64,000 nucleotides of DNA from a virus (IMGVR_UViG_3300044641_005618), one strand, 5' to 3'. Numbered from the stretch's first letter, positions 14,468-56,957 are shown. Numbers and translations: made by a program. Notes: a model not told the origin generated them from the sequence alone.

Positions 14468-14641
14468 CTAGAGGTAAGCCCCGCCTAAGAGCGCATCTTC
14501 ACTCACATCCCCCTTCTCTCGCAGCTTCATTGCAGCTTCAAGGTACGGATTTGCACCTTCACCAAGCTCGCCGCGCCGTTCTTTGTAACGAGACATGAGC
14601 GCGATATACTGCGCGTCGTTTTTTCCTGTGGTCCTTTTCAT
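14468..14641 (-). CDS. kinase-partner small protein A (57 aa)
   Basis: Manual translation MKRTTGKNDAQYIALMSRYKERRGELGEGANPYLEAAMKLREKGDVSEDALLGGAYL; TAATG overlap with the kinase stop. Confidence 0.8.
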   Translation of the reverse strand: MKRTTGKNDAQYIALMSRYKERRGELGEGANPYLEAAMKLREKGDVSEDALLGGAYL

Positions 14642-16206
14642 TAGATCCCCTCGTAGAGTGTGTTGATCACTTCCATCGCTTGCTTGTCGCTTAGCTTAGC
14701 CCAAGGTCCCACCTTATACTTCTCGTCGCGAGTGCTAGTTTTAGTGGTAAGGACTTTAGTCATGTCTTCACCGTCTATTCCAAAACTTCGGAGTTTCTCA
14801 ATGGCCTTTTCTTTGTTTATGTATGCTTTGTAGGCTAGCGGGGCGTCTTCTTCGAGAAATGCCAAGTAGTTTGCTTTTTGTTTCGGTGTGATATTCTTTC
14901 TTTCCACATCTGAAATCATGTTTCCACCTGGACCCCAACTCGAAAAGGTAGAGTCTGCGCTTTTTCCTCTGGGTCCCGGAAAGGCTCCTAGTGCCTCCAC
15001 AAGAGCAGCTTTCGGATTGTCTTGCGCCAGCCCCATATCAACGAATCGCCCTTTACCCTTCTCATCTACCAAAACATTGCCCCCATGCATATCATTGTGT
15101 GCGACCCCCATCCTGTGCAGATCTGCACGAGCCTTCCAATAGGCGTCGGTATTCGCTTTACTGGAATCTCTACTCGGATTCATACCTAGAGGGGTCCCTT
15201 GAACTTTCGACATAGCGATACGACCGTTCCTCAGGTCTACCCCCGTTCCCTTAGGTCCAGTGGGTCCGCCAATATCCGCAGCAATCAGCTTCGGCCCCAG
15301 GTCGGCTTTACCAACTTTATCGACGATAGCCGCCTCTGTACGGCTAACCATACCTCTTTTAACAACTTCGCCGTCCGGACTTAGAATCGCAGTGCCGAAC
15401 ATACCCGACCCCAGCATCTTAGCCTTTTCGCCAAAGGTTCGACTCCAACCATCGTACTTCGGGTCTCCCTGTCTCACATGGTTGCTCTTTTCGATCTTAG
15501 AGTCTATGATCGCGGCTATTTCTTCCTCGTAGGATAAACCATCTGAGTTCACTTTCTTGGAGGCCTCTCTTGGCCCCCGATTCTCCTCAAGAATGCTCTT
15601 GATGTCGTCCAGAACTTCTTTCTTCGTTACTTTTGCTCCGCCGCTCTGACCCCCACCGGGTCCTAACCCTAACCCTGACGCTTTTCGTTGTGACACAGCC
15701 GAAACTTTTTTAGCGATCGCCGGTGAAAGTTGCCGTTCGGCCAGCAGCTTGTTTACTTGCGCTCTCTGTTTGTCGTTCAGCCTCGGGTCATTTAGAACCT
15801 TCTTCAGTTCTTCAACGGGTAGCGCCTTGACTTTGGCTGTCAAACGCATTTTTCCCTGCGTTACGGCCCCCTTTGACGGGTCCGGTACCGCTTTCTTACT
15901 CAACAGCTTCTCTGAGAGTTTTGAGAGTGATGAGTGGAGCTCAGGAGGGAGAGGTTTCCCCGGTAGCGTTGGTTTCACCCCCTTCTTCACCCCTTTGCCT
16001 TCACCTCTTACTTTTTTCCCTGGAGCGTCTTCCTTAACTTGCTCTGTACCCTTCCTACACTGTCCCGCCGTCCCATACACAGTGCCATCTTTCCTCACAC
16101 AACGAGTGAAGTCATACGTTTCCCCCTCAGAAAAGTCCGAGGGGTGCTGTTCGGCGATCAGTGTTTTGTACGCCTGAAGAGCATCGGACGAGAAGGAACC
16201 TTGCAC
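14641..16206 (-). CDS. modular-family protein: leader + YDFTRC + DPR module + protein kinase domain
   Basis: Start revised to GTG 16206; LGSGMFG glycine loop, VVK, HNDMHGGNV catalytic loop, FVDMG. Confidence 0.88.
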   Translation of the reverse strand: MQGSFSSDALQAYKTLIAEQHPSDFSEGETYDFTRCVRKDGTVYGTAGQCRKGTEQVKEDAPGKKVRGEGKGVKKGVKPTLPGKPLPPELHSSLSKLSEKLLSKKAVPDPSKGAVTQGKMRLTAKVKALPVEELKKVLNDPRLNDKQRAQVNKLLAERQLSPAIAKKVSAVSQRKASGLGLGPGGGQSGGAKVTKKEVLDDIKSILEENRGPREASKKVNSDGLSYEEEIAAIIDSKIEKSNHVRQGDPKYDGWSRTFGEKAKMLGSGMFGTAILSPDGEVVKRGMVSRTEAAIVDKVGKADLGPKLIAADIGGPTGPKGTGVDLRNGRIAMSKVQGTPLGMNPSRDSSKANTDAYWKARADLHRMGVAHNDMHGGNVLVDEKGKGRFVDMGLAQDNPKAALVEALGAFPGPRGKSADSTFSSWGPGGNMISDVERKNITPKQKANYLAFLEEDAPLAYKAYINKEKAIEKLRSFGIDGEDMTKVLTTKTSTRDEKYKVGPWAKLSDKQAMEVINTLYEGI

Positions 16207-16230
16207 TGTGCAGAATCTATACCTACACAA

Positions 16231-16238
16231 TTTTACCC
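16231..16238 (-). promoter_or_regulatory. GGGTAAA late-type promoter motif
   Basis: GGGTAAAA, 24 nt before GTG 16206; overlaps the upstream stop codon. Confidence 0.7.
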
Positions 16239-16442
16239 TTCGACATCAACCTCTAGCTCTTCCAGAAAGTCTCGAAGCTGCCGCGTCTGGTGTGACAACC
16301 GTGAAAGAAGCAAAACGGAGTCCGCCAGGAACTCTTCGAGTTCGTCACGAGACAACTCCTTGAGTCTCTTTCGCACAGATTGGGCGCGGAACTCAATCTC
16401 CAGGGGAAGCGGTGTTACGCTAAATGTCCTCGGTGAATCCAT
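16233..16442 (-). CDS. NblA-like phycobilisome degradation adaptor (divergent)
   Basis: PLPLEIEFRAQSVRKRLKELSRDELEEFL fits the NblA L-x-L-E-x-x-F two-helix pattern; start revised to ATG 16442. Confidence 0.5.
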   Translation of the reverse strand: MDSPRTFSVTPLPLEIEFRAQSVRKRLKELSRDELEEFLADSVLLLSRLSHQTRQLRDFLEELEVDVEG

Positions 16443-17097
16443 GTGCAATTGCCTGCAATTTGTAGAATTTGTCTGCGGCCCACTCTCTCTCTTCAGACGA
16501 CAGGTCTTTGTCCTCAGCATATTTGACCACAGTATTGAGTTCGGACTCTGAAAGTTCTTTCATGGACCTTACGAGTTCGGGAGAAGCCACGTAAGGCTTA
16601 ACATCGTCGTCGTTAAAAATAAACTCTCGTGTGGTCCAATCTTCAGGGTTAGAGTCGTAGGAAACATGGTAGTTATGAGTTGTCATATCAACCATAATTA
16701 CTTTCGATTCAGGTAATCCCAACTCTGTCGCAATTTCGGTGTAAGTCTTCTTTTGCTTCAGTAACTCGTCTACCTTGGTTTTATACGTCGCAACCCATCG
16801 CGGGGTTTTCACCATTCGGGAGTAGTCTCGCAAAGCGTGCTGGATATAGCCTCTGGCGGTTCTCCAAGCAAAGGTGCTAAACTGAACTTTTTTGTCGGGA
16901 TCATATCGTGTAGCAGCAACGCAGAGTGCGAAATTCGCTATTGACTCGAGGTCCTCTCTTGTGAGAGATCCGGTGTATCCGCCTGTCGAGCACTTGGCAC
17001 CGTAGGCGAGTCGTCCAGCGATCCATTTGTGGTCTCTTACCAAACACTGTTGCTCTTTTGTGAGCTCAGGGTAGCGCCTGTAGCGTCTTTTTGCCAT
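16420..17097 (-). CDS. SigF/sigmaB-like (group 3) RNA polymerase sigma factor
   Basis: YDPDKKVQFSTFAWRTARGYIQHALRDYSRMVKTPRW parallels the SigF/sigmaB region 2 (FDP..G..FSTYA...I.H.LRD....VR.PR.W); HTH TYTEIATELG; start revised to ATG 17097. Confidence 0.8.
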   Translation of the reverse strand: MAKRRYRRYPELTKEQQCLVRDHKWIAGRLAYGAKCSTGGYTGSLTREDLESIANFALCVAATRYDPDKKVQFSTFAWRTARGYIQHALRDYSRMVKTPRWVATYKTKVDELLKQKKTYTEIATELGLPESKVIMVDMTTHNYHVSYDSNPEDWTTREFIFNDDDVKPYVASPELVRSMKELSESELNTVVKYAEDKDLSSEEREWAADKFYKLQAIAHGFTEDI

Positions 17098-17098
17098 A

Positions 17099-19042
17099 TT
17101 AAGCCTCGCAGCTTTTGCATTCGTTGTAAGCGCCGTCTGAATCGTCATGGGCGCTGACCGTCTCGGTGTTATTCGATTGTTTGTATGCTATGTAGTCGGT
17201 ATAACCTCCAATGTGTTTCTTGAAAAGCCACAGTTGGGGTACAGTTGTCCACTCAGGGTTCCAGAAGCCTTTCTCCTCCGCTTCCACTTTAGTAATTTCT
17301 TCGTACCGAACTCCCTCCATAGATAGCTCGTTCTTAAGTTTCACACACCACGGACAACCCTCGCGGGTCACAATCAAAGCAGGAACAACTTCTTTATTCG
17401 TAAGAAGGCTGCTTGACTTTAGGTAATAAAGCGACTTTAGCTTCATTTTCCATGCCGCTAGGTGCAGACGAGTAATATACGATGCATCCGACTTCGGGTC
17501 GGGAAACAGATTTAGCGATTGACCCTGACACACGTAGGGTTGCCGATCTGCCGCCTGCTTAATAAGCTCAAACTGGTCTACCTCTCGTGCAGTCTTGAAC
17601 ACCTCTTTCTCGTGCTCAGTTAAGCATTCAACACCCTGAACACTCCCCTTGGCCACTAGAATTTGATCCCAAACTTCCGGACCTACTCCTCGATCGCAGA
17701 AGATTTTTTCAAGGTACTGGTTCTTTCGAACATAAGTGCCCTTGGCTTGTTTGGCGACGTAGTAGTTTCGGTCTCGTGGCTCTATGCCTTCGGTGCCTGC
17801 CCCGCAAATCACACTATTTGTTTTGGTCGGTGCGATCGCGATTAAGTGCGTGTGACGCATTCCGGTGCCCTTGCACCATTCTGGTTCCCCAAACCGCTCG
17901 GCCAACTCCTTCGACGCTTTGACTGCTTCTTCCTTCATCCACCGAGTTGTTTCAACATTCAACGCTCGCGCCCCTTGTGACTTCACGGGTAGTCCATGCA
18001 GTTGATAGAGGGAGTGAAGTCCCATGACTCCCAAGCCAAGAGCACGGCTTTTCTCTGCGAAACGAACGGATCTACCCATGCCAACCTTGTCTTTGGCTTT
18101 GCGTATAAACTCACTAACGACCGCCTCAAGGAAGTGGATCCCAATTTGAGGAACAGTGCGGCCTGAGACAGGGGACTTCCAGTCCTTAAACTCGTCGTAG
18201 CGACTCAGGTTTAAGCTGCTGAGGACGCACACGAATGAGTGGTTCTCGTCAGTGTGTAGGAAGATTTCCGAGCACAAATTACTGGTCTTTACAGTCAGTC
18301 CCCTTTCTTTGTAGCAGTCCGGGTTCTGGTTATTAGCATTGTCAATAAAGATTAGGTACGGGGTCCCCGAGATCATTCTTGTTCTCAAAACCTCTGCGAA
18401 CAACTCATGCTTTTGTTTGTCTCCCTTTATCATGGACTCAACCCACTCGTCGGTTATTGTGAGTGCTATGTTTGAGTCTACCCATGTCCTCGGATCCCCT
18501 TTTGTGTGATCCTTTGCACGAAGCAGTTCTGGAACGTCCGGGTGATCAATAGGCAGGTAAAAAGCGAATGATCCTCTCCTGACTCCCCCTTGGCTCACAA
18601 CTCTCGCACAAATGTCGTATTGCTGCATCCAGGGCACAGCACCAATTGATTTTCCACCCCCGGTTATAGGCGACCCTGCAGGACGAATTTCCCCGAAGTA
18701 GTTGCCCACTCCGCCCCCACTCTTGCTTAGTTGAGCTACTTCTTTTAAGTGTGAGTAGATAGAGGAAATGCTATCTGAAGGGTGAACAGAGAAGCACGAT
18801 ATAGGCTGACCACGGTATGTACCGAAGTTGGAAGCCACCGGACTCGCCGCGCCGATCCATCCGGACCATAGGCAGTGGAACAAGTCTTCGTCTAGTGTCG
18901 GATCTTCGTTTATCTTTGACGCCGTTTTTGCGAGACGGCTAAACATATCCTTCGGAGTCTCACCTACTAATAAGTAGCCATTAGAGAGAGTATGAAGGGC
19001 CTCTTCATTCATCCAATGTGGGCGGGTAAGTTCTGTATTCAT
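17099..19042 (-). CDS. nrdA: class Ia ribonucleotide reductase alpha subunit with an inserted glutaredoxin domain
   Basis: SNLCSEI, CVLSS, APTKTNS; CPWC...TVPQ..IGGY glutaredoxin domain before the terminal CKSC; no N-terminal ATP cone seen. Confidence 0.95.
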   Translation of the reverse strand: MNTELTRPHWMNEEALHTLSNGYLLVGETPKDMFSRLAKTASKINEDPTLDEDLFHCLWSGWIGAASPVASNFGTYRGQPISCFSVHPSDSISSIYSHLKEVAQLSKSGGGVGNYFGEIRPAGSPITGGGKSIGAVPWMQQYDICARVVSQGGVRRGSFAFYLPIDHPDVPELLRAKDHTKGDPRTWVDSNIALTITDEWVESMIKGDKQKHELFAEVLRTRMISGTPYLIFIDNANNQNPDCYKERGLTVKTSNLCSEIFLHTDENHSFVCVLSSLNLSRYDEFKDWKSPVSGRTVPQIGIHFLEAVVSEFIRKAKDKVGMGRSVRFAEKSRALGLGVMGLHSLYQLHGLPVKSQGARALNVETTRWMKEEAVKASKELAERFGEPEWCKGTGMRHTHLIAIAPTKTNSVICGAGTEGIEPRDRNYYVAKQAKGTYVRKNQYLEKIFCDRGVGPEVWDQILVAKGSVQGVECLTEHEKEVFKTAREVDQFELIKQAADRQPYVCQGQSLNLFPDPKSDASYITRLHLAAWKMKLKSLYYLKSSSLLTNKEVVPALIVTREGCPWCVKLKNELSMEGVRYEEITKVEAEEKGFWNPEWTTVPQLWLFKKHIGGYTDYIAYKQSNNTETVSAHDDSDGAYNECKSCEA

Positions 19043-19078
19043 AGTGATTTCAAGAGTTAAGAATGTGGTTGTAGCGTA

Positions 19079-20059
19079 TTACACCAAGTCTAGAACCAGA
19101 TCCTTTAAGTTAACTCTCAAAAAGTCCTGAGTCGGTTTTGCAACGTAGGCGTCCCCCGACTTTGCTTGAGCGAAAACGTCTGTACTTGTCGCGCCTGCAG
19201 CAATAGGGTCGAACCACTGTTTAATCCTGTTCGCAGACTCTATGTCGACTTGGAACAAGGGTACGGATATTCCAAGCTTAGTCAACCTGTCGTTTGCTCG
19301 CCAGCGAAGATAATGCTTCGTGTCCTGCAGAGTAATGGTGTCGAGAGTACGTCCTTCAAAGATCTGGTTAAGGAACGCATCCTCATTTCGGAGTACCGCG
19401 TCAAACCCTTGGAAAATCGCCTCGGCCTCACTAGGGGTTAACGGGTCCTCCTTGATTAGCTCACGAAAGAGTTGTATTCCGGTATCGCTGTGCTGTTGCT
19501 CGTCTTGAATTGACCATGATATAATTTGCGATAGCCCTCTGTACCTTCCGTTGAGATTCAAGGAAAGAAGGACTGCGAAGGAAGAAAACAGCGAGACACC
19601 CTCGGCAGCGCCACTGAATACCGCGAGGGACTCTTTAATGTTTTTCTTTCCTAGAAAGAACCCAATCTTTTGACGGGCTATGGGGTCACCAAGGAAAGCC
19701 TCAAATTCGTCTAGACCCAGGGTGTCCGATAAGAGATTATATGCTTCGGCGTGAACAACTTCAGAGAAAGCAAAGGTTCGAGCCACTGCCGCAATCTCAT
19801 GTTTAGGAAACCACTCCGGAATCTTTGACCAGTAGTCCCCAATGTGTGTCTCAAGAATGGTGAAACCACGCAAAATTCCCCCAACAATCTCACGTTCGCT
19901 TTGAGTTGCACTTTGCCAGTCTCGAACATCACTTTCAAATTGTGCTTCTTCAGGACCCCAAAGAGAAAGGCGAGCTTTCTGATAAGTTTTGAAAAAATCA
20001 GGGTATTCAAATTCCCCGTTAAGTTTGTAGGCTTCTCGATACTGAGTTATGCTTGGCAT
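19079..20059 (-). CDS. nrdB: class Ia ribonucleotide reductase beta subunit
   Basis: Diiron motifs ETHIGDYW, EVVHAEAY, EGVSLFSSF, DEQQH. Confidence 0.95.
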   Translation of the reverse strand: MPSITQYREAYKLNGEFEYPDFFKTYQKARLSLWGPEEAQFESDVRDWQSATQSEREIVGGILRGFTILETHIGDYWSKIPEWFPKHEIAAVARTFAFSEVVHAEAYNLLSDTLGLDEFEAFLGDPIARQKIGFFLGKKNIKESLAVFSGAAEGVSLFSSFAVLLSLNLNGRYRGLSQIISWSIQDEQQHSDTGIQLFRELIKEDPLTPSEAEAIFQGFDAVLRNEDAFLNQIFEGRTLDTITLQDTKHYLRWRANDRLTKLGISVPLFQVDIESANRIKQWFDPIAAGATSTDVFAQAKSGDAYVAKPTQDFLRVNLKDLVLDLV

Positions 20060-20657
20060 TTAGTCGTTCTAAGCGTTTGCGTTCTTTTTCTGCGAGATAT
20101 CTGTCTCGTGCAGGTTTGTGTTTTTCATGGCTCCACCACTCGGGTTGGTTTCCGTGTTTCCAAACAGCGTACCCTTTCTCGCCCATTAGGTAATTTCGGT
20201 ACGCTTGAACCGGGTTTGCTGGATCTTTGTACTGGTCCGGCATAGCTTGAACGAACGGTGAGTGGTCTCTCGAACTCGCCGCGTTGAAGTTTTTGTAGAG
20301 CAAGGTCCGAACTTCATCTAAGCCGAACAAAGCACCGTGGTATTTGTTGTATCGTTCCCAGTACTCCTGAGCCATACCGAAAGCGTGCTCCACGACCCAG
20401 TGAACATTGGCTGGCGTTTCGTACAGCCACTTTGAACAGGGGTGGTAAGCGAAACCTTTCGTCCCGTAGAACAACTTTTCAGACTCCAGGAGAGCCAGTT
20501 GCCTATTGAGTCCGGGCTTCTCGATTTTCACCTCAAAGGTGTTAAACGCCCAAGGTGCCAGTAACTGCAAGCTCTCAGTCGTCATTTTTACGACGAGCTT
20601 GTCAGGCAGGGATGCTCCCGCGATTTGCGGGTCTTCATGCACTGCAAAGATGTTCAT
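20019..20657 (-). CDS. pyrimidine-dimer DNA glycosylase-like protein
   Basis: MNIF....DP..A...L.DK.VVKM..E..QLL, HPC..W, EY..RY.K.H, QAMPDQYK, AYR.Y. Confidence 0.7.
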   Translation of the reverse strand: MNIFAVHEDPQIAGASLPDKLVVKMTTESLQLLAPWAFNTFEVKIEKPGLNRQLALLESEKLFYGTKGFAYHPCSKWLYETPANVHWVVEHAFGMAQEYWERYNKYHGALFGLDEVRTLLYKNFNAASSRDHSPFVQAMPDQYKDPANPVQAYRNYLMGEKGYAVWKHGNQPEWWSHEKHKPARDRYLAEKERKRLERLNAKHNSVSRSLQT

Positions 20658-20723
20658 TTGTTTCGAACGAAGTAGTTTAGTTTAGCGTGAAAAAAGGTAA
20701 ACTCTTCCGAATTTGTTTCAACC

Positions 20724-20758
20724 AAAGAAAAACCACCCCCGGTTATCCCGAAGGCGGT
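20724..20758 (-). terminator. intrinsic terminator after hli
   Basis: ACCGCCTTCGGG-ATAA-CCGGGGGTGGT followed by a U-rich tract. Confidence 0.6.
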
Positions 20759-20780
20759 CACTCGATCTCTTATAAAGATC

Positions 20781-20984
20781 TCACCAAATTCCTGGTATAA
20801 TTTGCCCAGTGACTGCGTAAGACCCAAGTGCAGCGACTATTCCAATCATCGCCGCTCTCCCATTCATCCTTTCTCCTAAAAAGTCCCAGTCTATCATAGG
20901 CCGGTAGTTTGAGTCTACGGGAGTAATCGGGGGCTCAATTGCAAAGTTGTTGAGCCGACCCTTTTCATCAGAAGTGACTGTCAT
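20781..20984 (-). CDS. hli: high-light-inducible protein
   Basis: ERMNGRAAMIG chlorophyll-binding motif; MTVTS..GRLNNFAIEP N-terminus and GQIIPGIW end typical of cyanophage Hli. Confidence 0.92.
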   Translation of the reverse strand: MTVTSDEKGRLNNFAIEPPITPVDSNYRPMIDWDFLGERMNGRAAMIGIVAALGSYAVTGQIIPGIW

Positions 20985-21047
20985 TTTGTTTGTTCAGTGT
21001 TTAAGTTTAGTGGTTGCTAGAAGAGGTGAAACAGCTTTGTCGTACGG

Positions 21048-21299
21048 TCACAGAGTGGACCCCGAATTCGAGACAACTTGCTCCAAAGGAAGGGTCACCT
21101 CGCCGGACTGCTGGTGCTGGCCCAAAGCAGCTAGGCCCGTGGTGAGATTTTCGTAGTCTTCACCCACGCTCTGCCCTTTTCTCTCGGCTTTTCTGCGCTT
21201 ACGCTCATTCAACCACAGTTGCATGTAAGCAAGTTCACCGGGAGTGTGAAGCTCAGGGTGCTTCAGTGCTTCTTTTACAAGCTTTTTTGCTTTTGTCAT
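21048..21299 (-). CDS. cyanophage-type small hypothetical protein
   Basis: KLVKEALKHPELHTPGELAYM. Confidence 0.6.
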   Translation of the reverse strand: MTKAKKLVKEALKHPELHTPGELAYMQLWLNERKRRKAERKGQSVGEDYENLTTGLAALGQHQQSGEVTLPLEQVVSNSGSTL

Positions 21300-21634
21300 C
21301 GTTTAATCTCCTGAACAGTGAAGAAAGTGCACCCGAGGTGCATGCAAAAGGTTTGTGCAATTTCCGACGAGGACCGCCCGCCGCAGGTGAACACGTCCAC
21401 AGCTGCCTGGCCTTTCTCAGGCCACGTGTGAATCGAAATATGACTCTCAGCAAGCAAGATAATGCCTGTCAAACCTTGCGGGTCAAACTGATGAAGGATC
21501 GGCTCGCTAAGGGCCACCAACTCGTGTTGGAGCACTGTGAGTCTGAACGCATCTCGAAGCCGATCGATGCAATTTAGCTTGTCGAAGTCAGCGTCGAAAA
21601 TGCGAACTAGAGCATGAGTTCCAAGACTTTCCAA
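21296..21634 (-). CDS. speD: S-adenosylmethionine decarboxylase
   Basis: F.PQG.TG..LLAESHISIHTWPE, VDVFTCG. Confidence 0.93.
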   Translation of the reverse strand: MESLGTHALVRIFDADFDKLNCIDRLRDAFRLTVLQHELVALSEPILHQFDPQGLTGIILLAESHISIHTWPEKGQAAVDVFTCGGRSSSEIAQTFCMHLGCTFFTVQEIKR

Positions 21635-21650
21635 TTCATAAATACCTCAA

Positions 21651-22007
21651 TTATTCAGAAGTGTGCTGTTCTAAAATTTGTTTTACCCCCCCTCTTAGTT
21701 CCCTTAGAGACAGGGCACCTTGCAAGAATCCTAGGTACTTTCCCGTTGAACTCAGGAAGAGGTAAGTAGGGAAGTCTATCTCGTAGGTGTCTGAAACTGC
21801 GTAGCGTTCGAGACACTGGTAGATTCGAGTCCGTGTTGCGTTCCCATTAAAGTCTCGAAGGGTGTCAAAGGGTATCTCTTGAAAAGAAACTTCGGGAAAC
21901 CCCTCAAACATGGACTTGTCGAACCGGGACATCGTGTCACAGACTGGACATCCAAGGTCGAACACCTTGGTTACAACAACCGCTGCGTTAGGCTTATTTT
22001 CTGTCAT
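21651..22007 (-). CDS. thioredoxin-fold protein
   Basis: CPVC motif and downstream FPTY cis-Pro loop. Confidence 0.65.
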   Translation of the reverse strand: MTENKPNAAVVVTKVFDLGCPVCDTMSRFDKSMFEGFPEVSFQEIPFDTLRDFNGNATRTRIYQCLERYAVSDTYEIDFPTYLFLSSTGKYLGFLQGALSLRELRGGVKQILEQHTSE

Positions 22008-22016
22008 TATCCCGCC

Positions 22017-22631
22017 TCAAATAAAGTTTCGAAGTTCGGGACTAACCTCACGCACTTTTTTGGTGAAACGTGAAATGTGGCCGTTTGTAGCCTGTTTCGT
22101 AAGCCCATACTTTTGAGCAACTTCCCCCTGTCGCATTGCCTTTCTGCCAAGTAGTCCGAAACGGTCGCAGACGATTTGTGCTCTCTTGCTGTCAAGAGAA
22201 CCACAACCCTTCTTTATAATGTCTGCAATGTCTATGCGAGCAAACTCTTCTTTCAGCTCGTAAGCGTTCGGGTCTTCAAGGTTGTTCGACCAGTCTGACT
22301 GCTCTAAGGATAGCGCAAATTTGGGGTTCTTTTTCTCTTTTCGTGCAGCACCTTGAACCGCACCACGAACATTAGGGTAGATCCACGTCATTGGGCGAAT
22401 ACCTCGCCCGTTGACCCTGTAGTTAAGGTCAAACGTTTTGATAGCCTTTACGATGCCAAGTAAACCCTCTTGAACAAGATCATCGTAGATATAATCGTGA
22501 CCCATAAATTTGTACCTTATAGCAAACTTATGAACAAGGGGTGTGAACTGCTTCAGAGTCTCTGTGACCGCTAGAGAATCTCCTCGAACTGCGTTGTAAA
22601 AGGTTTCGTCTGTGTACATGGTGTTTTTCAA
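22017..22631 (-). CDS. second sigma70-family sigma factor
   Basis: DDLVQEGLLGIVKAIKTFD (region 2), RFGL.G...MRQGEVAQKYGLTKQ (region 4). Confidence 0.85.
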   Translation of the reverse strand: MKNTMYTDETFYNAVRGDSLAVTETLKQFTPLVHKFAIRYKFMGHDYIYDDLVQEGLLGIVKAIKTFDLNYRVNGRGIRPMTWIYPNVRGAVQGAARKEKKNPKFALSLEQSDWSNNLEDPNAYELKEEFARIDIADIIKKGCGSLDSKRAQIVCDRFGLLGRKAMRQGEVAQKYGLTKQATNGHISRFTKKVREVSPELRNFI

Positions 22632-22639
22632 CTACAATA

Positions 22640-22668
22640 AGTATAGCGCCTCTGAGGGGAAAGGCAAA
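22640..22668 (-). promoter_or_regulatory. sigma70-type (early) promoter of the second sigma gene
   Basis: TTTGCC-17 nt-TATACT. Confidence 0.6.
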
Positions 22669-22708
22669 GCCGGTATCCCGGCGTTTTTAGGCGGGTATCC
22701 GCCATCCC

Positions 22709-23730: not shown

Positions 23731-23773
23731 TTTGTTTCAGCTTGTTGAAATGTGTTTGATTGTTTGGGAAGGG

Positions 23774-44861: not shown

Positions 44862-44885
44862 GGGTACTCCCTCGTTCAAGGGAAA

Positions 44886-45368: not shown

Positions 45369-45372
45369 AATT

Positions 45373-49481: not shown

Positions 49482-49507
49482 TGTTCAGAACTAACATATA
49501 TAAAGAG

Positions 49508-49515
49508 TTTTACCC
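49508..49515 (-). promoter_or_regulatory. GGGTAAA late-type promoter motif
   Basis: GGGTAAAA, 26 nt before GTG 49481. Confidence 0.7.
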
Positions 49516-49518
49516 TAG

Positions 49519-52500
49519 TCATAGCACACCCGTCTCGTTCGCCAGAGATAGGACTATACCCGGCCCCCACCTTAAGAAACTACTCCCGTACTTACCCTGG
49601 TTTGGACAGAAAATAAACTCTGCGTTGGACACTACTCGTAGGTTTGCTACGGTGTTAGGTAGAGGGGCGTCAGTCGGGTCTAAGAAAGTCAAAACAGAAT
49701 TTTCCACAGTGTAGGATACACCAGGTAACTGCAACGCACCACCCAAGCTGAGCATAATATTCTCCGCTGTTACAGCAGAAGCATTCACCACCTTACCTCC
49801 GTACTTTAAGGGGAATGAAGTTCTAGCCCCGTTAAACTCCCCACTAATGTCGTCAAGTGAGTAAACTTCTACAGGGTAAGTCGAACGCAAAGACCAGTAC
49901 GAACCCGAACAAACAGATCTAATGTCTAGGGTAGTTCCTTCGGGGGGAACTCCTGTGAAGGAAAACCGAACAGTTGTTGGAGAGGTCCTCTCAACAGAAT
50001 AAGAGAACGGCAGAGAAGAGTTGACAGCGGACAAGGGTATTTGCTCCACCCCACCCAAAAATACGAACGTGTTGTTGGCGGTGACTTCCAGTGGGGCCAA
50101 TAAGCTTGGGTCTAAGGGAATGGTGGCCGTGAAGTTCGTTCTTGCTCCGTCAAAGGGCTCAACGAAGCTCAAAGACGCAACGGTTAGAGTTCGATTTGAG
50201 TCAACACTGGTTACAACCCGAATATTGCAGGACAAGCCTGCTGGAGGGGATTCTGCGAATTGGATCCTGTTCCCGATCAGAGAGTAGTTCACAAAGGGCT
50301 TTTGTACAGAAGCTCCGAGAGTTACAAATAAGGATTCTGCGGACAGCTGATCTGGCGGTATTGCTAAGCCACTGCGAGTCAAGTCAAAGGTTGAACGGGA
50401 CCCGTTGAGCTCAGGTGAGATGTCGTCGGCAGAGTATACAACAACTTGAGAAGGGAACTCAACGTATGGCTGTTCTTCATATATTTGTTGGTTGCTGGGG
50501 TTAATTGTCGGAGTAGAGTACTCGTAGAAGTTCGCTGTTAGCGCTTGACGCTGTGGGCCAAACTGAACAATTTCCCCCTTATCATTCACTCCCATTACGG
50601 TAAGTCTCCCGCTCCAAGTAGTGGTGGCTTGGTAGTCGGTAGCTAACTTTCGAGTGAAGTCGTTGCTCTGAAACTCGGGGAGTCCTCGAGAGTAGTTATA
50701 GTAACCCGCGTAAGCCCAAGTGTGGGTGTTGGCAGATATAATCGAAGGTTGGTTAAATTCAAGAGGCCATTTATCTACCGTCAATGAGTAACCGTTTGTG
50801 GGAAGATTACCAACGAGGGACATAATTGACATTAGCCGTTCCCCCCAGTACTTTGGAACCAAATAAGGTTTTAGGACCCCCTTTGAATAGCCCATGACTT
50901 CAAAGAAGCGATACATTGCCCTTTTTGTGCTAGTCCAATCGGGGTCGTAAAGCTCAGGCTGAGGGAGTGGATTTGTACTACAAACTGTGACTACAGTCTG
51001 CTGTGGCCAGTTGTTTCCCGGTAGTGTTGTCGGGTAGTAACTGTTCTCATAAGTTAGACGTATTCCTCGAACGACGGTTCCGTTCAAGTTTATGACTCGA
51101 ATGTACTCAACACCAGAAGAAGAACTAAGTCGAATCACCGACGTTGTTTGACGTGGGTTCTCAATATCAACAGACGACAAAACGGAAAATTCCACTATTG
51201 AGGGTCGGTATCTCCGGGGTAGCGGAGTTAAGGTGGCGTCTTGTTTCAATTGCACCTCAGTCAAAGCAGAGACCGTGTAGGTGGCAGCGCCATCAGCTAA
51301 GTCTTTTAGGCACAGTCCAAGACTCTCTGTGCTGTCGTCCCCGTCATAAACACTCTGAGAAGAGTAAGTTGGGTAGGGGTCAGTGGCACCTCTAAAGTAG
51401 CTCTGCTCTGAGTACCCCTCTGTACTCAGGTAGGAGTCGATCGCGTAAGAACCTTGAAAAGTTTCTGAGACCTTTTCTTGTTTTTCCAGGACACTTGTGT
51501 CAACGAACGGTGAGCAGGTCTCGATCGGAGCCACAGAGAAAGGACCAAAGCTGTCCGTGAAACTTGAAGCCTCACCGTAATAAACGCAGTTCCACAGGTT
51601 GTTTTCAGCGGCGTACCAGTTTCTGTTTCTGTATGTCGTGTACGATCCAGACGGAAGGTTGAAATTACTTCCTTGCCCCCAGGGGCGACTGTAGTCGGTC
51701 GCCGTAATTGCCACATAGTAAGTAAGATCTTGGTTACTATCCCCAATGACGTAATTAAACTGAGGGGAAGACCCTTGTCCACCCGTCTCCATGGCGTCAA
51801 CTGTGAAGAGTCTCCCCCAACCCCCCAGGACCCCTGGGTCGAATTGAACATTCGGTCTTAGCGAAATTGAACCCTGTTGTTGGCTGGTTTGGTTTAGTCT
51901 TAGTACGGATCCTATTTGTGGGGCAATAGCGTTCGGTAGGGTGTTTCTTATAAACAGACTGTACGATCTTTCAAAGTCTTGTCTTGGGTCAGTAAACCTT
52001 CGAATATAGGGGACACCAAGAATTGGTAGTAGACTCTCATCATTCGGTATCGTACTGTCTGATGACCTTAAGCGGAGTTTAGCGAAGTTTACGGGGTCCC
52101 CAAGGCCAGTAATAACCGTTGGCCCCCCGTCTGCGGCAAAAAATCCGCGGTAGGTGCAGGACTCAGTTTCAACCCAAAGTGCTGTCCCTGGCCCTAAGGA
52201 GTAAGGAAGTAAGTGACAAGGGGAAAAGTCTGAGCTCAGCTCTAGTATTTGCGTGTTCGGGTCCTCGGGGTCGATATAAATCGCCTTAATCTTTCCCCCA
52301 AGGGAAAGTATTCTCTTGTTGTCTGGGTTCTCTACCTGAGACTTAAGCAGGGCCAGTGGCCTTTGAACGCCCTCAAGAACGAATCCCTTTCCGTTAGGCT
52401 TCGCACCGCCTATTGTGTTAATTCCAAGGAAACCCTCAGACTTAAACGCAACCGATCCGAAGTTTGTCGTGCTATTTGTTAGGCTGCAGGTTCCGCCGTT

Positions 52501-54291
52501 TAGTGCCCAAACCCCAATCGCAGGGCCGATACTATACACAGATTGAAACTGCCCGTGAGCCCCATTCCTGACGCGGAACCCGAAGTGTCGAAAGTCCCTT
52601 TCGATGTCTACAATTCCTATGCTTTGGCCGCCTGGCTCCGTGAGGCTCTTGTAGTAATACCGTATGTTATTTACGGGAGTGGAGTTTAACAAGGAAAGTT
52701 GATCCTTCACTGTAACGTCGGACAGCGAAGAAGGGCGAAGCTCCACTGGAGTCGATAGAAACTTCGCTTCAGTCAAATTCCACCACTTTTGCTCTGGTAG
52801 CTTCGTGGCCGGGTTTACGAGGGTTGTGTAAATTTCGTACACGCACGGGTCGTTCTGTAAAGAAACCGCTGTGCAAGAGACTGCGACTACCGACTTAAAC
52901 CCGGAAACAGACGCCCCGTCGAAATCCCCCCAGTTCATGCCATAGTCGGATCTGAGAACAACGTCTTTTGCGTAAAACGGCGAGTTTCTCGTGGTGTTTG
53001 AATCCTCGTTGTTAGGGTAGGCCCCAACTGGGGCTACGATTGTATAGTCCCCGCTATCTACTAGGGACATGCCCTTTGTGACTTTCCCGCCAAAGAAGTC
53101 AGGAAATGCCTTCTGAACTTTCGTGAAGTACTCACCAATCTCAAATAAAGTTGCGTTTTCGAACACCTTGAGCCTGTGAGCAGACTTTAGAGTGTTTTCC
53201 ACTAAAAACTTCGGCGTTGTCTTATCACTGAATGTCGGTAAAGAGGAGAAAGGTACGTACTCCGCAGCGGGAGTCTCTGTTTGAGACCCGAAAGATAAGT
53301 AAAAGCGGTCAGTATCAATGGGGACAACATAGTAGTTCCCTGCGGTGAATGTCCCTGTGCTCTGATCCACAGTCGGCTCGAAACTTACGGACGCGACATC
53401 ATTGAATAAGTGTCCGTGCGGTCTTTCGGAAATAAAAACGGCTAGTCCGTTTTCTTCTGTAATTGAAATAACAGTTCTCGATGACAATTTGTCAACTACG
53501 GAGAAGGACTCAGCTACAGAATTTCCTACGCATTTGAAAATTGAGCTTAAGGGTTGGTCAATTCCTCGATAAGCTGCAGGAAATGCCGGGTTGAAATATG
53601 ACGGAACAAATGCCGGGGAAACAACGCACTTTTTTAGATCGAGCCCTATAATAGAGATGCCGAAGGGGACAATTATCCCTCCACTTAGTGGGTTGAACTG
53701 CTGGAGTTGCGCAGTTGTAACTTTGTCGCCTGAAGAAGAGAAATTTACAGTGAAGTCATCGAGGCTAACGCCGGGGCCATTGTTGGCTGTTATGAGAGAG
53801 GAGGAGAGAAGGATCGTATAGCGATTGCTTTCGTTCGAAGTGGGGAAACCAGCTAAAACGCGGCTTATGTATATCTTCGAAAGCTCAAGTATTGCTCGGG
53901 ATAAAGTCTGAAAGGGCAAGGCTTGCCCGTCGTTTCGAAGAGAATCCGTTGAGTACTTAAACTCAGGCGCAACAAACACTATGCTCCCCCCGCCACCGAG
54001 GAAAGGAGCGGACACCGTGCGCCATTGACTCGTTGCGTCTCCTACATTGAGTGTGCCGTCCTCGGTGTCGAACCACAACTCTCCCTTTTCCGGGAGGTTC
54101 GTAGGAGGAAGGGGCAGCACTGAGGGGGGCCCAACTTTAATTACTTGACCGTCAGTGACTGAGAAGAAAAGCCCTGGTTCTTCGCTGTTTGTGTTTAAGC
54201 CGATTTCACCTGGCGGAAGGTGAGACGCACTCGGCCTCTTTCCGGCGATTGAGGAGCGCTTCAGAACTATTCGTTTGGCTTTGGCTGACAT
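49519..54291 (-). CDS. large virion structural protein, paralogue of 45993..49481 with a fibre-type N-terminus
   Basis: 1590 aa; KRSS..GKRP...L.PGEIGLN N-terminus; shared PF.T..RA.LE and SP....L.S.YG...G.V.GFKS domains; repeated F-[D/N]-G-x-R-x-x-F units near the C-terminus. Confidence 0.78.
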   Translation of the reverse strand: MSAKAKRIVLKRSSIAGKRPSASHLPPGEIGLNTNSEEPGLFFSVTDGQVIKVGPPSVLPLPPTNLPEKGELWFDTEDGTLNVGDATSQWRTVSAPFLGGGGSIVFVAPEFKYSTDSLRNDGQALPFQTLSRAILELSKIYISRVLAGFPTSNESNRYTILLSSSLITANNGPGVSLDDFTVNFSSSGDKVTTAQLQQFNPLSGGIIVPFGISIIGLDLKKCVVSPAFVPSYFNPAFPAAYRGIDQPLSSIFKCVGNSVAESFSVVDKLSSRTVISITEENGLAVFISERPHGHLFNDVASVSFEPTVDQSTGTFTAGNYYVVPIDTDRFYLSFGSQTETPAAEYVPFSSLPTFSDKTTPKFLVENTLKSAHRLKVFENATLFEIGEYFTKVQKAFPDFFGGKVTKGMSLVDSGDYTIVAPVGAYPNNEDSNTTRNSPFYAKDVVLRSDYGMNWGDFDGASVSGFKSVVAVSCTAVSLQNDPCVYEIYTTLVNPATKLPEQKWWNLTEAKFLSTPVELRPSSLSDVTVKDQLSLLNSTPVNNIRYYYKSLTEPGGQSIGIVDIERDFRHFGFRVRNGAHGQFQSVYSIGPAIGVWALNGGTCSLTNSTTNFGSVAFKSEGFLGINTIGGAKPNGKGFVLEGVQRPLALLKSQVENPDNKRILSLGGKIKAIYIDPEDPNTQILELSSDFSPCHLLPYSLGPGTALWVETESCTYRGFFAADGGPTVITGLGDPVNFAKLRLRSSDSTIPNDESLLPILGVPYIRRFTDPRQDFERSYSLFIRNTLPNAIAPQIGSVLRLNQTSQQQGSISLRPNVQFDPGVLGGWGRLFTVDAMETGGQGSSPQFNYVIGDSNQDLTYYVAITATDYSRPWGQGSNFNLPSGSYTTYRNRNWYAAENNLWNCVYYGEASSFTDSFGPFSVAPIETCSPFVDTSVLEKQEKVSETFQGSYAIDSYLSTEGYSEQSYFRGATDPYPTYSSQSVYDGDDSTESLGLCLKDLADGAATYTVSALTEVQLKQDATLTPLPRRYRPSIVEFSVLSSVDIENPRQTTSVIRLSSSSGVEYIRVINLNGTVVRGIRLTYENSYYPTTLPGNNWPQQTVVTVCSTNPLPQPELYDPDWTSTKRAMYRFFEVMGYSKGVLKPYLVPKYWGERLMSIMSLVGNLPTNGYSLTVDKWPLEFNQPSIISANTHTWAYAGYYNYSRGLPEFQSNDFTRKLATDYQATTTWSGRLTVMGVNDKGEIVQFGPQRQALTANFYEYSTPTINPSNQQIYEEQPYVEFPSQVVVYSADDISPELNGSRSTFDLTRSGLAIPPDQLSAESLFVTLGASVQKPFVNYSLIGNRIQFAESPPAGLSCNIRVVTSVDSNRTLTVASLSFVEPFDGARTNFTATIPLDPSLLAPLEVTANNTFVFLGGVEQIPLSAVNSSLPFSYSVERTSPTTVRFSFTGVPPEGTTLDIRSVCSGSYWSLRSTYPVEVYSLDDISGEFNGARTSFPLKYGGKVVNASAVTAENIMLSLGGALQLPGVSYTVENSVLTFLDPTDAPLPNTVANLRVVSNAEFIFCPNQGKYGSSFLRWGPGIVLSLANETGVL

Positions 54292-54331
54292 TTGCTAAAG
54301 AGCTTAAGACTGTGTGCAGAGGCACTCATAC

Positions 54332-54339
54332 TTTTACCC
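54332..54339 (-). promoter_or_regulatory. GGGTAAA late-type promoter motif
   Basis: GGGTAAAA, 40 nt before ATG 54291. Confidence 0.6.
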
Positions 54340-54341
54340 CC

Positions 54342-54503
54342 TCAAATGTACCTCGCTGCCTCTTTCGCCTCAGAGCTCACTCCGCGTTTCCCAAGCTCCA
54401 TTGCCGTGTTAAGAATTTCCCGAGCGCGACTTCTTTCGCGTGGGTTTCCCCTCACCCTCTTGTAGAGGGACATTAAGTCCAGGTACTTTTGATCCTTTTC
54501 CAT
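54342..54503 (-). CDS. kinase-partner small protein B (53 aa)
   Basis: Manual translation MEKDQKYLDLMSLYKRVRGNPRERSRAREILNTAMELGKRGVSSEAKEAARYI; TAATG overlap. Confidence 0.8.
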   Translation of the reverse strand: MEKDQKYLDLMSLYKRVRGNPRERSRAREILNTAMELGKRGVSSEAKEAARYI

Positions 54504-55771
54504 TAACTAACCCCTTCGTATAGTATGGAAATAAGCCTTGCAGCGTCGTCCTTGCCGATCTTACCCCAAGCACCTTTGTTGTAAGAGCTGAGTGGTTGGT
54601 CTAAACTGTGGGTCACCACCTCAGCAATATCGTCTTTGTTAAGACCAAGCTTTTCCATCTCGGTGTAAACTTTGATTCGGTTTCGTATAATCTTCCCGAG
54701 GTTTGTTTGGGGGGTAGTACCCTTCGAAGTAGCTGTAGCGGATGGTGGCAAGTAAAACTGCTTGTTGTCTCGTGCCTGGAAATCCCCTGAGTTTTCATTG
54801 AGTGGCTTTCTGAGCATTGCACCAGGGGGTAGTAAGTACCTCACCGATAAAACTCCAATGGCCTCTGAGAGAGCTGCACGAGGGTCATCCTGTGAAACAC
54901 CGAAGTCAACAAAACGTGCTTTCCCCTTGTCATCGATAATTACGTTTCCTACGTGGGCGTCATTATGGGCAACACCTTGCTCATGGAGTTTCTTTCGTAG
55001 GGCGTAGTAAGAGTCGCCCACAGTTGTGTTTCCAACTGGGCTTTCGTAAGAGTCAAAGTCTTCAGCTGACTTACCCTTTACACGGGACATTGCTATTCTT
55101 CCAGGGTAGTACCCAGCGTTGTTGAACTCAGCAGACTTATTCATCTCAGCCGAGATTAGCTTGGGGGTTATATCCTTTCCACTTAATTTCTCAAGAATTC
55201 TCACTTCATTTTCCCCCACCTCCCCTCTTTTCACGACTACGGACGGGGGTGGTTTGGATGCAATTACCGCTCCGTACAATCCTGATCCTAGCCCTTTTGA
55301 CCCCGACTCGTACGACTGTTTCCAGTCGTAGCTACCACCTAACTTTAGGGTTGGTGTGAACTCGGTGTCGAATTCGAGTGCGTTTTGGCGTTCTTGAATA
55401 GCTGGGCGGTCCGCCCTGGTGTGCTTAACCCATGTGTCAAAGAGTGCCTTTTCAACTTTCGTAGCCCTGTCTATCTCCTCGTCCGTCATATACTCTTTGT
55501 TACGTAGCTCAGCAAGCTGGCGCTCTGCCTCCCGCTTTAACGAGGGGAAGTCACTACTGGCATTGACCGTTGCCTTCGGGCCTAAGGCTAGGGCATCAAT
55601 AAGGTCCTTGACCAAGGGGTTTGTCTCGCCATTCTTAGCAACTTTGCCTGCTAAGGACCCCTGTAAGTTTTCTACTTGGTGGGATAGTTTAGGGGTCAAG
55701 GAGGCTCTGCACTTAGCCTCGCGGCTAATGCAGGTACCTCCACAGCTCTTCCCCTTAGTGCAGCGCTTCAT
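54503..55771 (-). CDS. protein kinase with an N-terminal C-x5-C-x3-C-x6-C module
   Basis: MKRCTKGKSCGGTCISREAKC; LGSGLYG, VVK, HNDAHVGNV, FVDFG. Confidence 0.88.
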   Translation of the reverse strand: MKRCTKGKSCGGTCISREAKCRASLTPKLSHQVENLQGSLAGKVAKNGETNPLVKDLIDALALGPKATVNASSDFPSLKREAERQLAELRNKEYMTDEEIDRATKVEKALFDTWVKHTRADRPAIQERQNALEFDTEFTPTLKLGGSYDWKQSYESGSKGLGSGLYGAVIASKPPPSVVVKRGEVGENEVRILEKLSGKDITPKLISAEMNKSAEFNNAGYYPGRIAMSRVKGKSAEDFDSYESPVGNTTVGDSYYALRKKLHEQGVAHNDAHVGNVIIDDKGKARFVDFGVSQDDPRAALSEAIGVLSVRYLLPPGAMLRKPLNENSGDFQARDNKQFYLPPSATATSKGTTPQTNLGKIIRNRIKVYTEMEKLGLNKDDIAEVVTHSLDQPLSSYNKGAWGKIGKDDAARLISILYEGVS

Positions 55772-56223
55772 TTTCTATTAGCGACTTCACCTGGTTCTTT
55801 GAAGTTATGTAGCAGTTCTTGTAAGCGATCGATACGGGTACTCATAGAGTCAATCCGCTCTGAGTAGGAAGTCTCCATACCGGCAGCGATATTGTGGTCG
55901 TCATTGTTCTTTCGAGCCAGGTCAAGCGTTGCCATTTTGCCGTCAATTTCCTCGCGCTCTTTCACAAGTTTCTTTGTCGCAGCCATCTGCCTTTGAAGTT
56001 CTTGAAACGCTCCACGCTGTCGAGAGAGCTTCATGGCAAAGCCCAAGTCAGCAATTGCTCTCGATATCGCTTCGTGCCGCTCGCCCATAGCGTCGTACTC
56101 CCCGAAGCTGGGGCGGAGAGTCGAGGTGGCTGAGGGTTCCATCACAGTTCCTCGGTAGTAATCCGTCGGAGTGTGGGAGAAACCTTCAAGCTGAAGTTCA
56201 TTCTCGGGGAAGTTAGGATTCAT
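55768..56223 (-). CDS. hypothetical coiled-coil protein
   Basis: 151 aa; contains SFGE and SYSE motifs; late motif upstream. Confidence 0.6.
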   Translation of the reverse strand: MNPNFPENELQLEGFSHTPTDYYRGTVMEPSATSTLRPSFGEYDAMGERHEAISRAIADLGFAMKLSRQRGAFQELQRQMAATKKLVKEREEIDGKMATLDLARKNNDDHNIAAGMETSYSERIDSMSTRIDRLQELLHNFKEPGEVANRK

Positions 56224-56263
56224 GGGTTCCCTTCTTGAGAAAAGAGATTCTTGTTGTACATAA

Positions 56264-56271
56264 CTTTACCC
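56264..56271 (-). promoter_or_regulatory. GGGTAAA late-type promoter motif
   Basis: GGGTAAAG, 40 nt before ATG 56223. Confidence 0.6.
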
Positions 56272-56286
56272 TTCACTACTGTGGGT

Positions 56287-56808
56287 CTAACCGCCGAGCT
56301 GACGAATTTGACTCTGTATGGCCTGGCGCCCACTCTCGGTGGTTTGACTCGCTAAGGCTTTCTTAAGCCCTTCTACCCTGTTCGTTTGAACTGCGGAGGA
56401 CTGCGACTGGGTCGGCTGCTTTGCGAACGGCACTTTTTGCTTCGGGCCCACCTTTGCCTCTCCTGCAACAGACCCCCAGGCTACGATTACTGGCTTGCCT
56501 CCCTTGATGGCCCAGCCGAACTTCTTCCCCTCAACCGTAAAAGCCTTTTTATTGGCTGCGGACGCTTGCTCTTTTGTTGACGCCCCGGCACCTTGTTTCT
56601 GAGCTTCGTTGCTTAGCTGCTCTTCTTGCTTGCTTCTTTTCGACGTGTCGAAATCTTTCCCCCCGGTCCCCCCAACTTTCCTGCACACACCGTATACCAT
56701 CTTCTCATCGGATTCACACGCCGCAAAGTCCCAGTCGATAATTGTGTAGTGGACACCTTCGATTGAGTGATCAACTGAAGGGAAGTTAAAATTGTTCATG
56801 GGTGTCAC
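56287..56808 (-). CDS. basic protein with a divergent DFxxC module
   Basis: WDFAACESDEKMVYGVCRKVG. Confidence 0.65.
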   Translation of the reverse strand: MTPMNNFNFPSVDHSIEGVHYTIIDWDFAACESDEKMVYGVCRKVGGTGGKDFDTSKRSKQEEQLSNEAQKQGAGASTKEQASAANKKAFTVEGKKFGWAIKGGKPVIVAWGSVAGEAKVGPKQKVPFAKQPTQSQSSAVQTNRVEGLKKALASQTTESGRQAIQSQIRQLGG

Positions 56809-56957
56809 AGGTAGGCGGCGGCTTTAAACTCTTCTTCAGATACTGTTCCGGATTTAGCTAGTTTTTGCATAGCTTTGAAAATCACAGATGCTTCCTTCTC
56901 CTCGCCTTGAAAGAGTGCGTGTTTTCGGTAAGAGGCGAGTTTAACATAGATGCTCAT
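56805..56957 (-). CDS. kinase-partner small protein C (50 aa)
   Basis: Manual translation MSIYVKLASYRKHALFQGEEKEASVIFKAMQKLAKSGTVSEEEFKAAAYL; ATGA overlap. Confidence 0.78.
   Translation of the reverse strand: MSIYVKLASYRKHALFQGEEKEASVIFKAMQKLAKSGTVSEEEFKAAAYL

Follow-up and report, generated by a model that had tools for sequence, protein, structure and literature searches.

Protein kinases have been reported in the virions of the cyanophages S-CRM01, S-CREM2, S-TIM5 and S-CBWM1, with homologues annotated as Ser/Thr or APH-like kinases (PMC10665884). In the S-CREM2 virion proteome, the same paper lists the kinase, open reading frame (ORF) 14, with 21 peptides and its small partner, ORF13, with 1 peptide (11.5 per cent coverage). 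Internal proteins of phage T4 carry a capsid targeting sequence of 10 residues, in which positions 4 and 7 serve targeting and positions 8 and 10 processing (PMC9026906). More broadly, phage kinases are emerging as tools of host takeover and anti-defence, as shown for the T7 kinase (Nature 2026, PMC13645617). Here we analyse 64,000 nucleotides of IMGVR_UViG_3300044641_005618 (hereafter the window, meaning the whole of this stretch), which derive from a giant (jumbo) lake-water cyanophage with three related protein-kinase-like enzymes. Each kinase gene is directly followed by a small ORF. We propose, with a probability of about 55 per cent, that every kinase is bound by its own dedicated small protein, which blocks the enzyme's active site. 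The six ORFs and the first of their junctions are as follows:

14641..16206, minus strand: kinase 1, 521 amino acids; an N-terminal leader of ~60 amino acids with a C-x13-C module, a long linker and a C-terminal Rio/WaaP-like kinase domain (~14644-15513)
14468..14641, minus strand: small partner 1, 57 amino acids; predicted long helix (9-43), turn, short helix (48-55) and C-terminal Tyr-Leu
14639..14656, minus strand: coupling junction 1; GAGGGG, then ATC TAATG, with stop and start overlapping by one base
54503..55771, minus strand: kinase 2, 422 amino acids; Cys-rich variant motif of KGKSCGGTC type at the N-terminus, kinase domain C-terminal
54342..54503, minus strand: small partner 2, 53 amino acids; C-terminal end ..ARYI
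56954..57841, minus strand: kinase 3, 295 amino acids from the ATG at 57841; the leader is followed directly by the kinase domain
56805..56957, minus strand: small partner 3, 50 amino acids; C-terminal end ..AAYL, ATGA overlap with the kinase 3 stop

The kinase core of the window enzymes is homologous to that of S-CRM01 gp130 ('PKN8'), S-CREM2 ORF14 ('APH/ChoK-like kinase') and the S-B68 and S-N03 homologues. Against S-CRM01 and S-B68, tblastn gave E-values of 2e-10 to 3e-10 (29 per cent identity over ~140 residues), and a hidden Markov model of the family matched the kinases of these two phages with E-values of 1e-23 to 1e-28. The cyanophage virion kinases also have a member of the same small-protein family directly downstream. 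They differ in belonging to T4-like myoviruses with a single kinase of 650-820 amino acids and a partner of 74-79 amino acids, both bearing a T4-type tag, whereas the jumbo phage of the window has three shorter paralogues, the ~60-residue leader and untagged partners of 50-57 amino acids with a stop/start overlap.

An ORF listing returned all six genes at the coordinates above, and the junctions bear out the overlap of kinase stop and small-ORF start that had been described for all three pairs in an earlier reading of the sequence alone (the original prediction). Stop and start share one base of TAATG at 14641 in pair 1 and at 54503 in pair 2, and four bases of ATGA at 56954-56957 in pair 3. 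At all three junctions, a Shine-Dalgarno-like word of GAGGG type lies 6-10 nucleotides upstream, within the conserved C-terminal LYEG codons of the kinase. We rejected the idea that the LYEG terminus is a mere by-product of this word, as it is kept also across intergenic spacers of 40-70 nucleotides. Where the kinases begin is consistent with the family's common N-terminal leader, which fits the GTG at 16206 in kinase 1 (the frame is extensible to a TTG at 16230) and the ATG at 57841 in kinase 3. The nearest IMG/VR record (G001/L013) has GTG in place of the ATG of small partner 1, with the one-base overlap and all but one residue kept; the phage collection contained no blastn match to the region. 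The three small proteins are homologous to one another, partners 2 and 3 each being 40-41 per cent identical to partner 1, and have Y12, L15, K20, G44, V46, S47 and Y56 in common; the C-terminal strings and the Y-x-x-L motif first read from the sequence proved exact. The kinases are ~34 per cent identical to one another.

To characterize the small genes, we searched a profile made from close homologues and the three window sequences against 1.84 billion proteins. The search yielded 127 representative clusters at 50 per cent identity (E ≤ 1e-3). Three long hits look spurious (P0098, a repeat protein of 144 amino acids, and P0133 and P0142, long repeat proteins that are TPR-like by eye); these aside, family hits are 44-124 amino acids long, fall into two size classes (short forms of ~50-57 and long forms of ~72-89 amino acids) and nearly always end with the domain, at its last residue or 1-2 residues later. 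The family signature reads YxxLM..YK..R...G-x-V-S....AAYL-COOH. The window ORFs match the profile with E-values of 5e-22, 5e-19 and 7e-17, and they are its only matches in the window, each directly after a kinase. Ratios of nonsynonymous to synonymous substitution rates (dN/dS) against relatives are 0.01-0.24 overall, with dS up to ~1 (0.02-0.11 for small partner 1 and 0.14-0.24 for small partner 2). Because of these 127 clusters, the low dN/dS and the confinement of window matches to the three positions behind kinases, the small ORFs are confirmed as real genes under purifying selection, far beyond chance.

The small family is unnamed. Nothing rose above noise in Pfam (only EF-hand_8, E = 0.039), PHROGs gave no match, a profile search of the PDB returned only designed helical and TPR proteins, the ESM Atlas yielded nothing usable, and none of the 127 representatives is a fusion of the small domain to a kinase. 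In the records examined, the small proteins are filed as hypothetical, with the exception of MC09, where the small ORF itself bears the kinase label. We found no discussion of the family in the literature searched, and the S-CREM2 paper, in its available part, tabulates ORF13 as a hypothetical protein (PMC10665884). The kinases themselves are of a known kind, the virion-associated kinases of cyanophages. Extra copies were also seen: the metagenomic contig L051 has three small-family genes (183-422, 419-694 and 2561-2746) around one kinase, and in L048 (277-585; P0131) the small domain is tandemly duplicated within one protein of 102 amino acids.

Contigs from RNA libraries of lake metatranscriptomes, 90-99 per cent alike to the window, span the junction of kinase 2 and small partner 2 (54442-54812) and cover small partner 3 with the end of kinase 3 (56796-57042 and 56901-57071). 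They fit co-transcription of kinase and partner as weak evidence, in that DNA can occur in such libraries, the contigs show neither strand, level nor translation, and some runs leave parts of the region uncovered. In contigs from three runs, the match to the window ends at 55770-55772 and resumes at 55817-55832; these relatives differ just upstream of the kinase 2 start.

The pairing is conserved well beyond the window. A small ORF lies beside the kinase in 33 of the 37 IMG/VR loci found from the kinase (gaps of -1, -11, +1 or <70 nucleotides). Searched with tblastn, the small protein matched 12 records, all of them Synechococcus myoviruses, each time just downstream of the kinase match; the order of kinase, then small gene, was checked in the annotation of S-CRM01, S-B68, S-N03, MC09 and S-CREM2, and the match coordinates in S-H34 and MA01/MA10/ME01 are consistent with it. 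In the reverse direction, seven diverse small-protein representatives were looked up, giving four independent lookups with enough flank (L047 and L048 were too short to judge): in L051, L052 and L053/54 the small gene comes after a kinase or the C-terminal part of one, and in L046 it immediately precedes a kinase gene that is apparently split. The partner gene of L049/L050 is an exception to the pairing. The sister jumbo phage G002 (277 kb, 98 per cent complete) has three kinases and three partners in all, each partner next to a kinase.

Kinase and partner have also diverged together. Their distance matrices correlate (r = 0.84, 19 dereplicated pairs; none of 10000 permutations reached this value), which does not by itself prove physical co-evolution. 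For all three pairs, the closest relatives of the window partner are paired with the closest relatives of its kinase; those of small partner 3, for instance, are the partners of the nearest kinase 3 relatives (L036 and L041). These comparisons show inheritance and duplication of the pairs as units. The view of the small proteins as conserved cognate partners of the kinases is supported because they are adjacent in dozens of loci, stand 3:3 in G002 and co-diverge with r = 0.84.

Two variants of this arrangement were seen. In G002, the third kinase-partner pair (135719-136874) lies ~85 kb from the kinase 2 pair, versus 2.4 kb in the window (56805-57841; L031 was also compared), and only a short leader-bearing ORF was found upstream of kinase 2, in the place that kinase 3 has in the window. 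The pair of kinase 3 and partner 3 seems to move or to be exchanged as a cassette. Locus L025 (2434-6768) holds a natural partner-less variant, in which a gene of kinase 2 type is directly followed by a homologue of the window's fibre-like protein of 1590 amino acids, with no small partner between them.

The kinases have intact catalytic residues. As originally described, the Gly loop, the beta3 lysine, HxDxxxxN and D[MF]G are present, and the alphaC glutamate is kept too. All of these elements are retained in 24 homologues (with the catalytic loop as H-N-D-x-H-x-x-N and a C-terminal end LYEG[IV]), where G37, G40, K52, E60, H139, D141, N146, D159 and G161 are invariant or nearly so. Resemblance to named families is slight: in Pfam, only the catalytic loop aligned, and APH, ABC1 and Pkinase stayed at or below their cut-offs apart from kinase 2 against APH, which was barely above (24.3 bits, cut-off 23.2, with an ABC1 tie at 22.9); kinases 1 and 3 fell below every cut-off, and PHROGs gave weak matches to 'kinase' families.

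An AlphaFold2 (AF2) model of the kinase 1 domain (predicted local distance difference test [pLDDT] score, 89.4; predicted template-modelling score, 0.90) has a bilobal kinase fold. A Foldseek search of the PDB returned at least 500 kinase matches, to canonical kinases with low template-modelling scores of 0.3-0.4, and was superseded by a VIA-align search. The latter placed first Rio2 (Z 11.2; root-mean-square deviation 3.5 over 174 aligned residues), followed by WaaP (Z 10.8), Rio1 (Z 10.2), YabT (Z 10.2), Ark1 (Z 9.9-10.1, two entries) and Bud32 (Z 9.8). Kinases of proteins, sugars, RNA and antibiotics are all represented among the closest folds. Rio2, Rio1, Bud32 and WaaP, the best structural matches, share with the phage enzymes a short kinase lacking a canonical activation segment after DFG; they differ in sequence (only 11-16 per cent identity) and in the helical C-lobe ending in LYEG[IV], which is peculiar to the phage family. 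The three kinases thus look like intact atypical kinases of a minimal Rio/WaaP type, predicted to be active. No HipA family appeared among the Pfam hits and no HipA chain among the 50 structural matches listed, although absence from these lists does not exclude such a relationship.

How the partner might act was examined by modelling the kinase 1 domain together with partner 1. On its own, partner 1 is predicted (pLDDT 94.6) to form the two helices given above, joined by a G-x-V-S turn, and a two-residue tail. The complex scored 0.85, and the best of 3 controls 0.00; in a benchmark that is rough here, with our own alignments used, 58 of 80 solved complexes and 2 of 110 mismatched pairs attained that mark. 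Contacts agreed between runs to at least 93 per cent, with partner pLDDT of at least 83. Because the partner has no solved relative in the PDB, this pass is unlikely to reflect memory of a known complex. Binding of the small protein to its kinase is predicted for cognate pair 1.

In the model, the kinase interface consists of the ATP pocket and the catalytic loop (L34, G35-G40, A42, V50, K52, M101, D141, H143, N146, L148, V158 and D159), and that of the partner of one face of the long helix (13, 17, 20/21, 24, 27/28, 31, 34/35, 38 and 41/42) plus residues 48-57. The long helix would lie along the cleft between the kinase lobes, where the invariant Lys20 would pair with the Mg-binding DFG aspartate (modelled contact K20 to D159) and Arg23 with the catalytic-loop aspartate (R23 to D141). 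The short C-terminal helix would cover the glycine loop. The invariant last two residues would enter the ATP site, the tyrosine in the adenine pocket (Y56 contacts residues 34, 42, 50, 52, 101, 158 and 159) and the terminal leucine beside the beta3 lysine (L57 contacts A42 and K52), which may place the leucine carboxylate at that lysine. By this predicted geometry, a bound partner would exclude ATP. Such occupation of the cleft would suit an inhibitor and suits neither an activator nor a substrate; the activating subunit and the substrate that the original prediction had allowed as alternatives are not fitted by the model. The cognate inhibitor that it favoured is the best-supported reading: the partnership stands on adjacency, the 3:3 count and co-divergence, the model places the partner in the cleft, and inhibition itself is predicted.

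Evidence on the partner's whereabouts comes from its relatives. A tag of the form M-x-x-[LIFMV]-x-x-[FWLY]-[LIMVF]-x-E stands at the N-terminus of 28 of the 46 long-form partners and of 0 of the 77 short forms, and in T4-like cyanophages M-K-x-L-x-x-F-[LI]-x-E opens the kinase and the long-form partner alike. Like the T4 internal proteins with a capsid targeting sequence, these long-form partners and kinases are hydrophobic at positions 4 and 7 and have [LI] at 8 and Glu at 10. They differ in this from the window, whose three partners are untagged and whose kinases 1 and 3 use a different, longer leader of ~60 amino acids. Because the S-CREM2 virion proteome contains the partner and the long forms carry a T4-type tag, we suggest that in T4-like cyanophages the partner is loaded into the head with its kinase; it probably accompanies the kinase and is not left behind. 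The original proposal that the small protein silences its kinase until packaging is, for the same two reasons (a single ORF13 peptide, PMC10665884, and the tag), probably too narrow.

The kinase and partner of these phages belong to a larger group of genes. The T4-like cyanophages L001, L002, L006, L007 and L008 have a conserved four-gene cluster that encodes a protein of ~150 amino acids, the kinase, the small partner and a protein of 580-970 amino acids, with an F-[LI]-x-E tag of T4 type close to the N-terminus of each product. The corresponding S-CREM2 ORF12-15 are all in the published virion proteome, and ORF12 is annotated as a Cas9-like nuclease (PMC10665884).

Put together, these results suggest the following course of events in the window phage. 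Through translational coupling (the stop/start overlap and the Shine-Dalgarno-like word), the cap would be available as each kinase molecule is completed. The kinases would be made late, loaded into the head and delivered with the DNA to the next host, and the partner would hold them inactive in the cell that makes them and probably also inside the particle. On ejection, the partner could be released by unfolding in the tail, by dilution, by competition with cellular ATP or by proteolysis of the free partner. A wider proposal is tentative, and we think it somewhat likelier to fail than to hold: that the widespread phage family constitutes a new class of kinase inhibitor, a C-terminal Tyr-Leu-carboxylate plug of the ATP pocket that is loaded into the capsid with the kinases and serves as a safety catch released on ejection.

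Several observations weigh against a blocking partner. The complex was modelled for one pair only, from our own shallow alignments (24 and 22 rows), and predictors can easily arrive at a peptide tail docked in a kinase cleft. Partners of kinase 3 type have Leu in place of Arg23. Pairing is also incomplete: L049/L050 has a partner gene and no kinase within 3 kb, and unpartnered family kinases occur in L025, L037, L044 and L045, as two of the four in L035, as one of the two in L036, and as S-CBWM1 gp161/162. The virion detection of the partner is a single peptide, for which the authors warn of possible carry-over (PMC10665884). Finally, a simple inhibitor that is co-packaged and co-delivered would need a release step, itself presumed.

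The alternative that survives best, though we regard it as unlikely, is that the small protein is a non-inhibitory obligate subunit: an activator, a chaperone for folding or solubility, or a packaging adaptor that holds a nucleotide-free kinase, in the manner of Cgi121 with Bud32 or ACP with WaaP. Indeed, the nearest structural relatives are minimal kinases that have partner proteins (Bud32-Cgi121, 4ww5; WaaP-ACP, 6dfl), and both the presence of the partner in S-CREM2 virions (PMC10665884) and the head-targeting tag of the long forms fit a travelling subunit better than an antidote that stays behind. However, a tail in the adenine pocket, with Lys and Arg on the catalytic aspartates, would be incompatible with catalysis while the partner is bound. 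Moreover, because several family kinases are partner-less, the kinase fold does not need the partner.

It is far less probable that the small protein acts as substrate or phospho-regulated pseudosubstrate of its kinase, with Ser47 (or else Tyr56, Tyr12 or Tyr19) as acceptor. Ser47 and Tyr56 are invariant in 24 paired sequences, and the Thr or Asp that some members have at the Ser position can resemble a phosphomimic. Yet Ser, Thr or Asp in the first turn of a helix, here in G-x-V-S-x-x-[AE], is a classic N-cap, and the modelled helix 48-55 starts directly after it; Ser47 lies outside the modelled interface, and the modelled Tyr56 sits in the adenine pocket, not at a phospho-acceptor site. On the model, helix N-capping thus explains better than phosphorylation why Ser, Thr and Asp alternate at the conserved V-S position.

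Least probable of all is a strict toxin-antitoxin or immunity module (for addiction, abortive infection or superinfection exclusion) made of a toxic kinase that is stable and a labile antidote retained in the cell: the coupled two-gene architecture, an active-site occlusion resembling that of HipS on HipT (PMC10627512) and a nonpolar C-terminus that could serve as a degron when free would all suit it, but this part of the original prediction found no support, since the kinase fold is Rio/WaaP-like, with no HipA among the Pfam hits or the 50 structural matches listed, the partner is encoded downstream of the kinase and is a helical protein of 50-57 amino acids in which Pfam, PHROGs, the PDB profile search and AF2 revealed no helix-turn-helix or other family match (no DNA-binding antitoxin was found), the neighbouring genes in these lytic phages encode virion proteins and effectors, the partner apparently enters the virion, and one phage has three pairs.

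The N-terminal parts of the kinases recur in other proteins. The ~60-residue leader of kinases 1 and 3 is common to at least six other window proteins; it consists of a G-S-F-S..A-L..A-Y leader followed by D-F-T-R-C-x-R-x-D-G-T-x-Y-G-T-A-G-x-C-R-K-G, and the leader-bearing ORFs, at least eight, have unrelated C-terminal parts and lie on the minus strand (1-217, 3473-4651, 6458-8734 with two copies, 11408-12817, 13427-13993, 14641-16206, 56954-57841 and 62359-62952). The module is present also in S-CBWM1 gp165 (L003, 4247-4720). It may serve virion loading or delivery. In place of the leader, the N-terminus of kinase 2 (55700-55771) has the Cys motif C-x-K-G-K-S-C-G-x-x-C-I-x(5-6)-C, which also heads several unrelated proteins elsewhere (L035, 3702-4871; L046, 1180-2289, 3269-4117 and 5234-6145).

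Two neighbouring ORFs deserve mention. We considered the ORF of 151 amino acids upstream of kinase 2 as a homologue of the ~150-residue gene product encoded upstream of the myovirus kinases; with 18-20 per cent identity and a faint N-terminal resemblance, this is unsupported. The ORF of 124 amino acids just upstream of kinase 3 (57852-58226, minus strand) ends in a motif of ~70 amino acids, ..H-P-T-K-S-H..F-G-Q-Q-G-V-K-G-S-P-K-K-E-G-E-S-E..A-R-H-A-x-N-I..S-A-A-Y-W, that also terminates proteins in two other kinase loci (L034, 474-1349; L045, 1966-3243).

If each small protein does block its kinase, a conserved, dedicated cap would answer how virion-packaged kinases stay harmless during their synthesis in the late infected cell. 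A family that matches nothing in Pfam, PHROGs or the PDB would add to the few natural protein inhibitors that mimic ATP. If the cap is also loaded with the kinase and released on ejection, injected enzymes would have a built-in timer, with each kinase paralogue under its own co-evolving cap. The cap would also offer a handle on kinase action at entry, by its deletion or by mutation of its last two residues, and its 50-residue scaffold would be a natural and compact blueprint for kinase-pocket blockers.

The closest functional analogues would be HipS on HipT and the Tyr88 of p27 in the Cdk2 pocket, neither of them homologous to the phage proteins. In HipBST, as in our model, a small separate protein sterically blocks the Gly-rich loop and active site of a kinase through a bulky aromatic residue, Trp65 in HipS and, by prediction, Tyr56 here (PMC10627512). 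The two show no sequence or fold relation, HipT being of HipA type and HipS corresponding to the N-subdomain of HipA (PMC10627512); HipBST also includes a third, DNA-binding protein and is a chromosomal toxin-antitoxin locus, whereas the pairs described here are genes of lytic phages for virion-linked proteins. Inhibition of Cdk2-cyclin A by p27Kip1 likewise places an inhibitor tyrosine in the ATP pocket (Tyr88, to which Tyr56 would correspond; 10.1101/2020.03.12.989517; PMC7254055). In contrast to p27Kip1, which is disordered and eukaryotic, also binds the cyclin and has its tyrosine released by phosphorylation, the phage partner is predicted to be a folded helical 50-mer whose plug is its very C-terminus.

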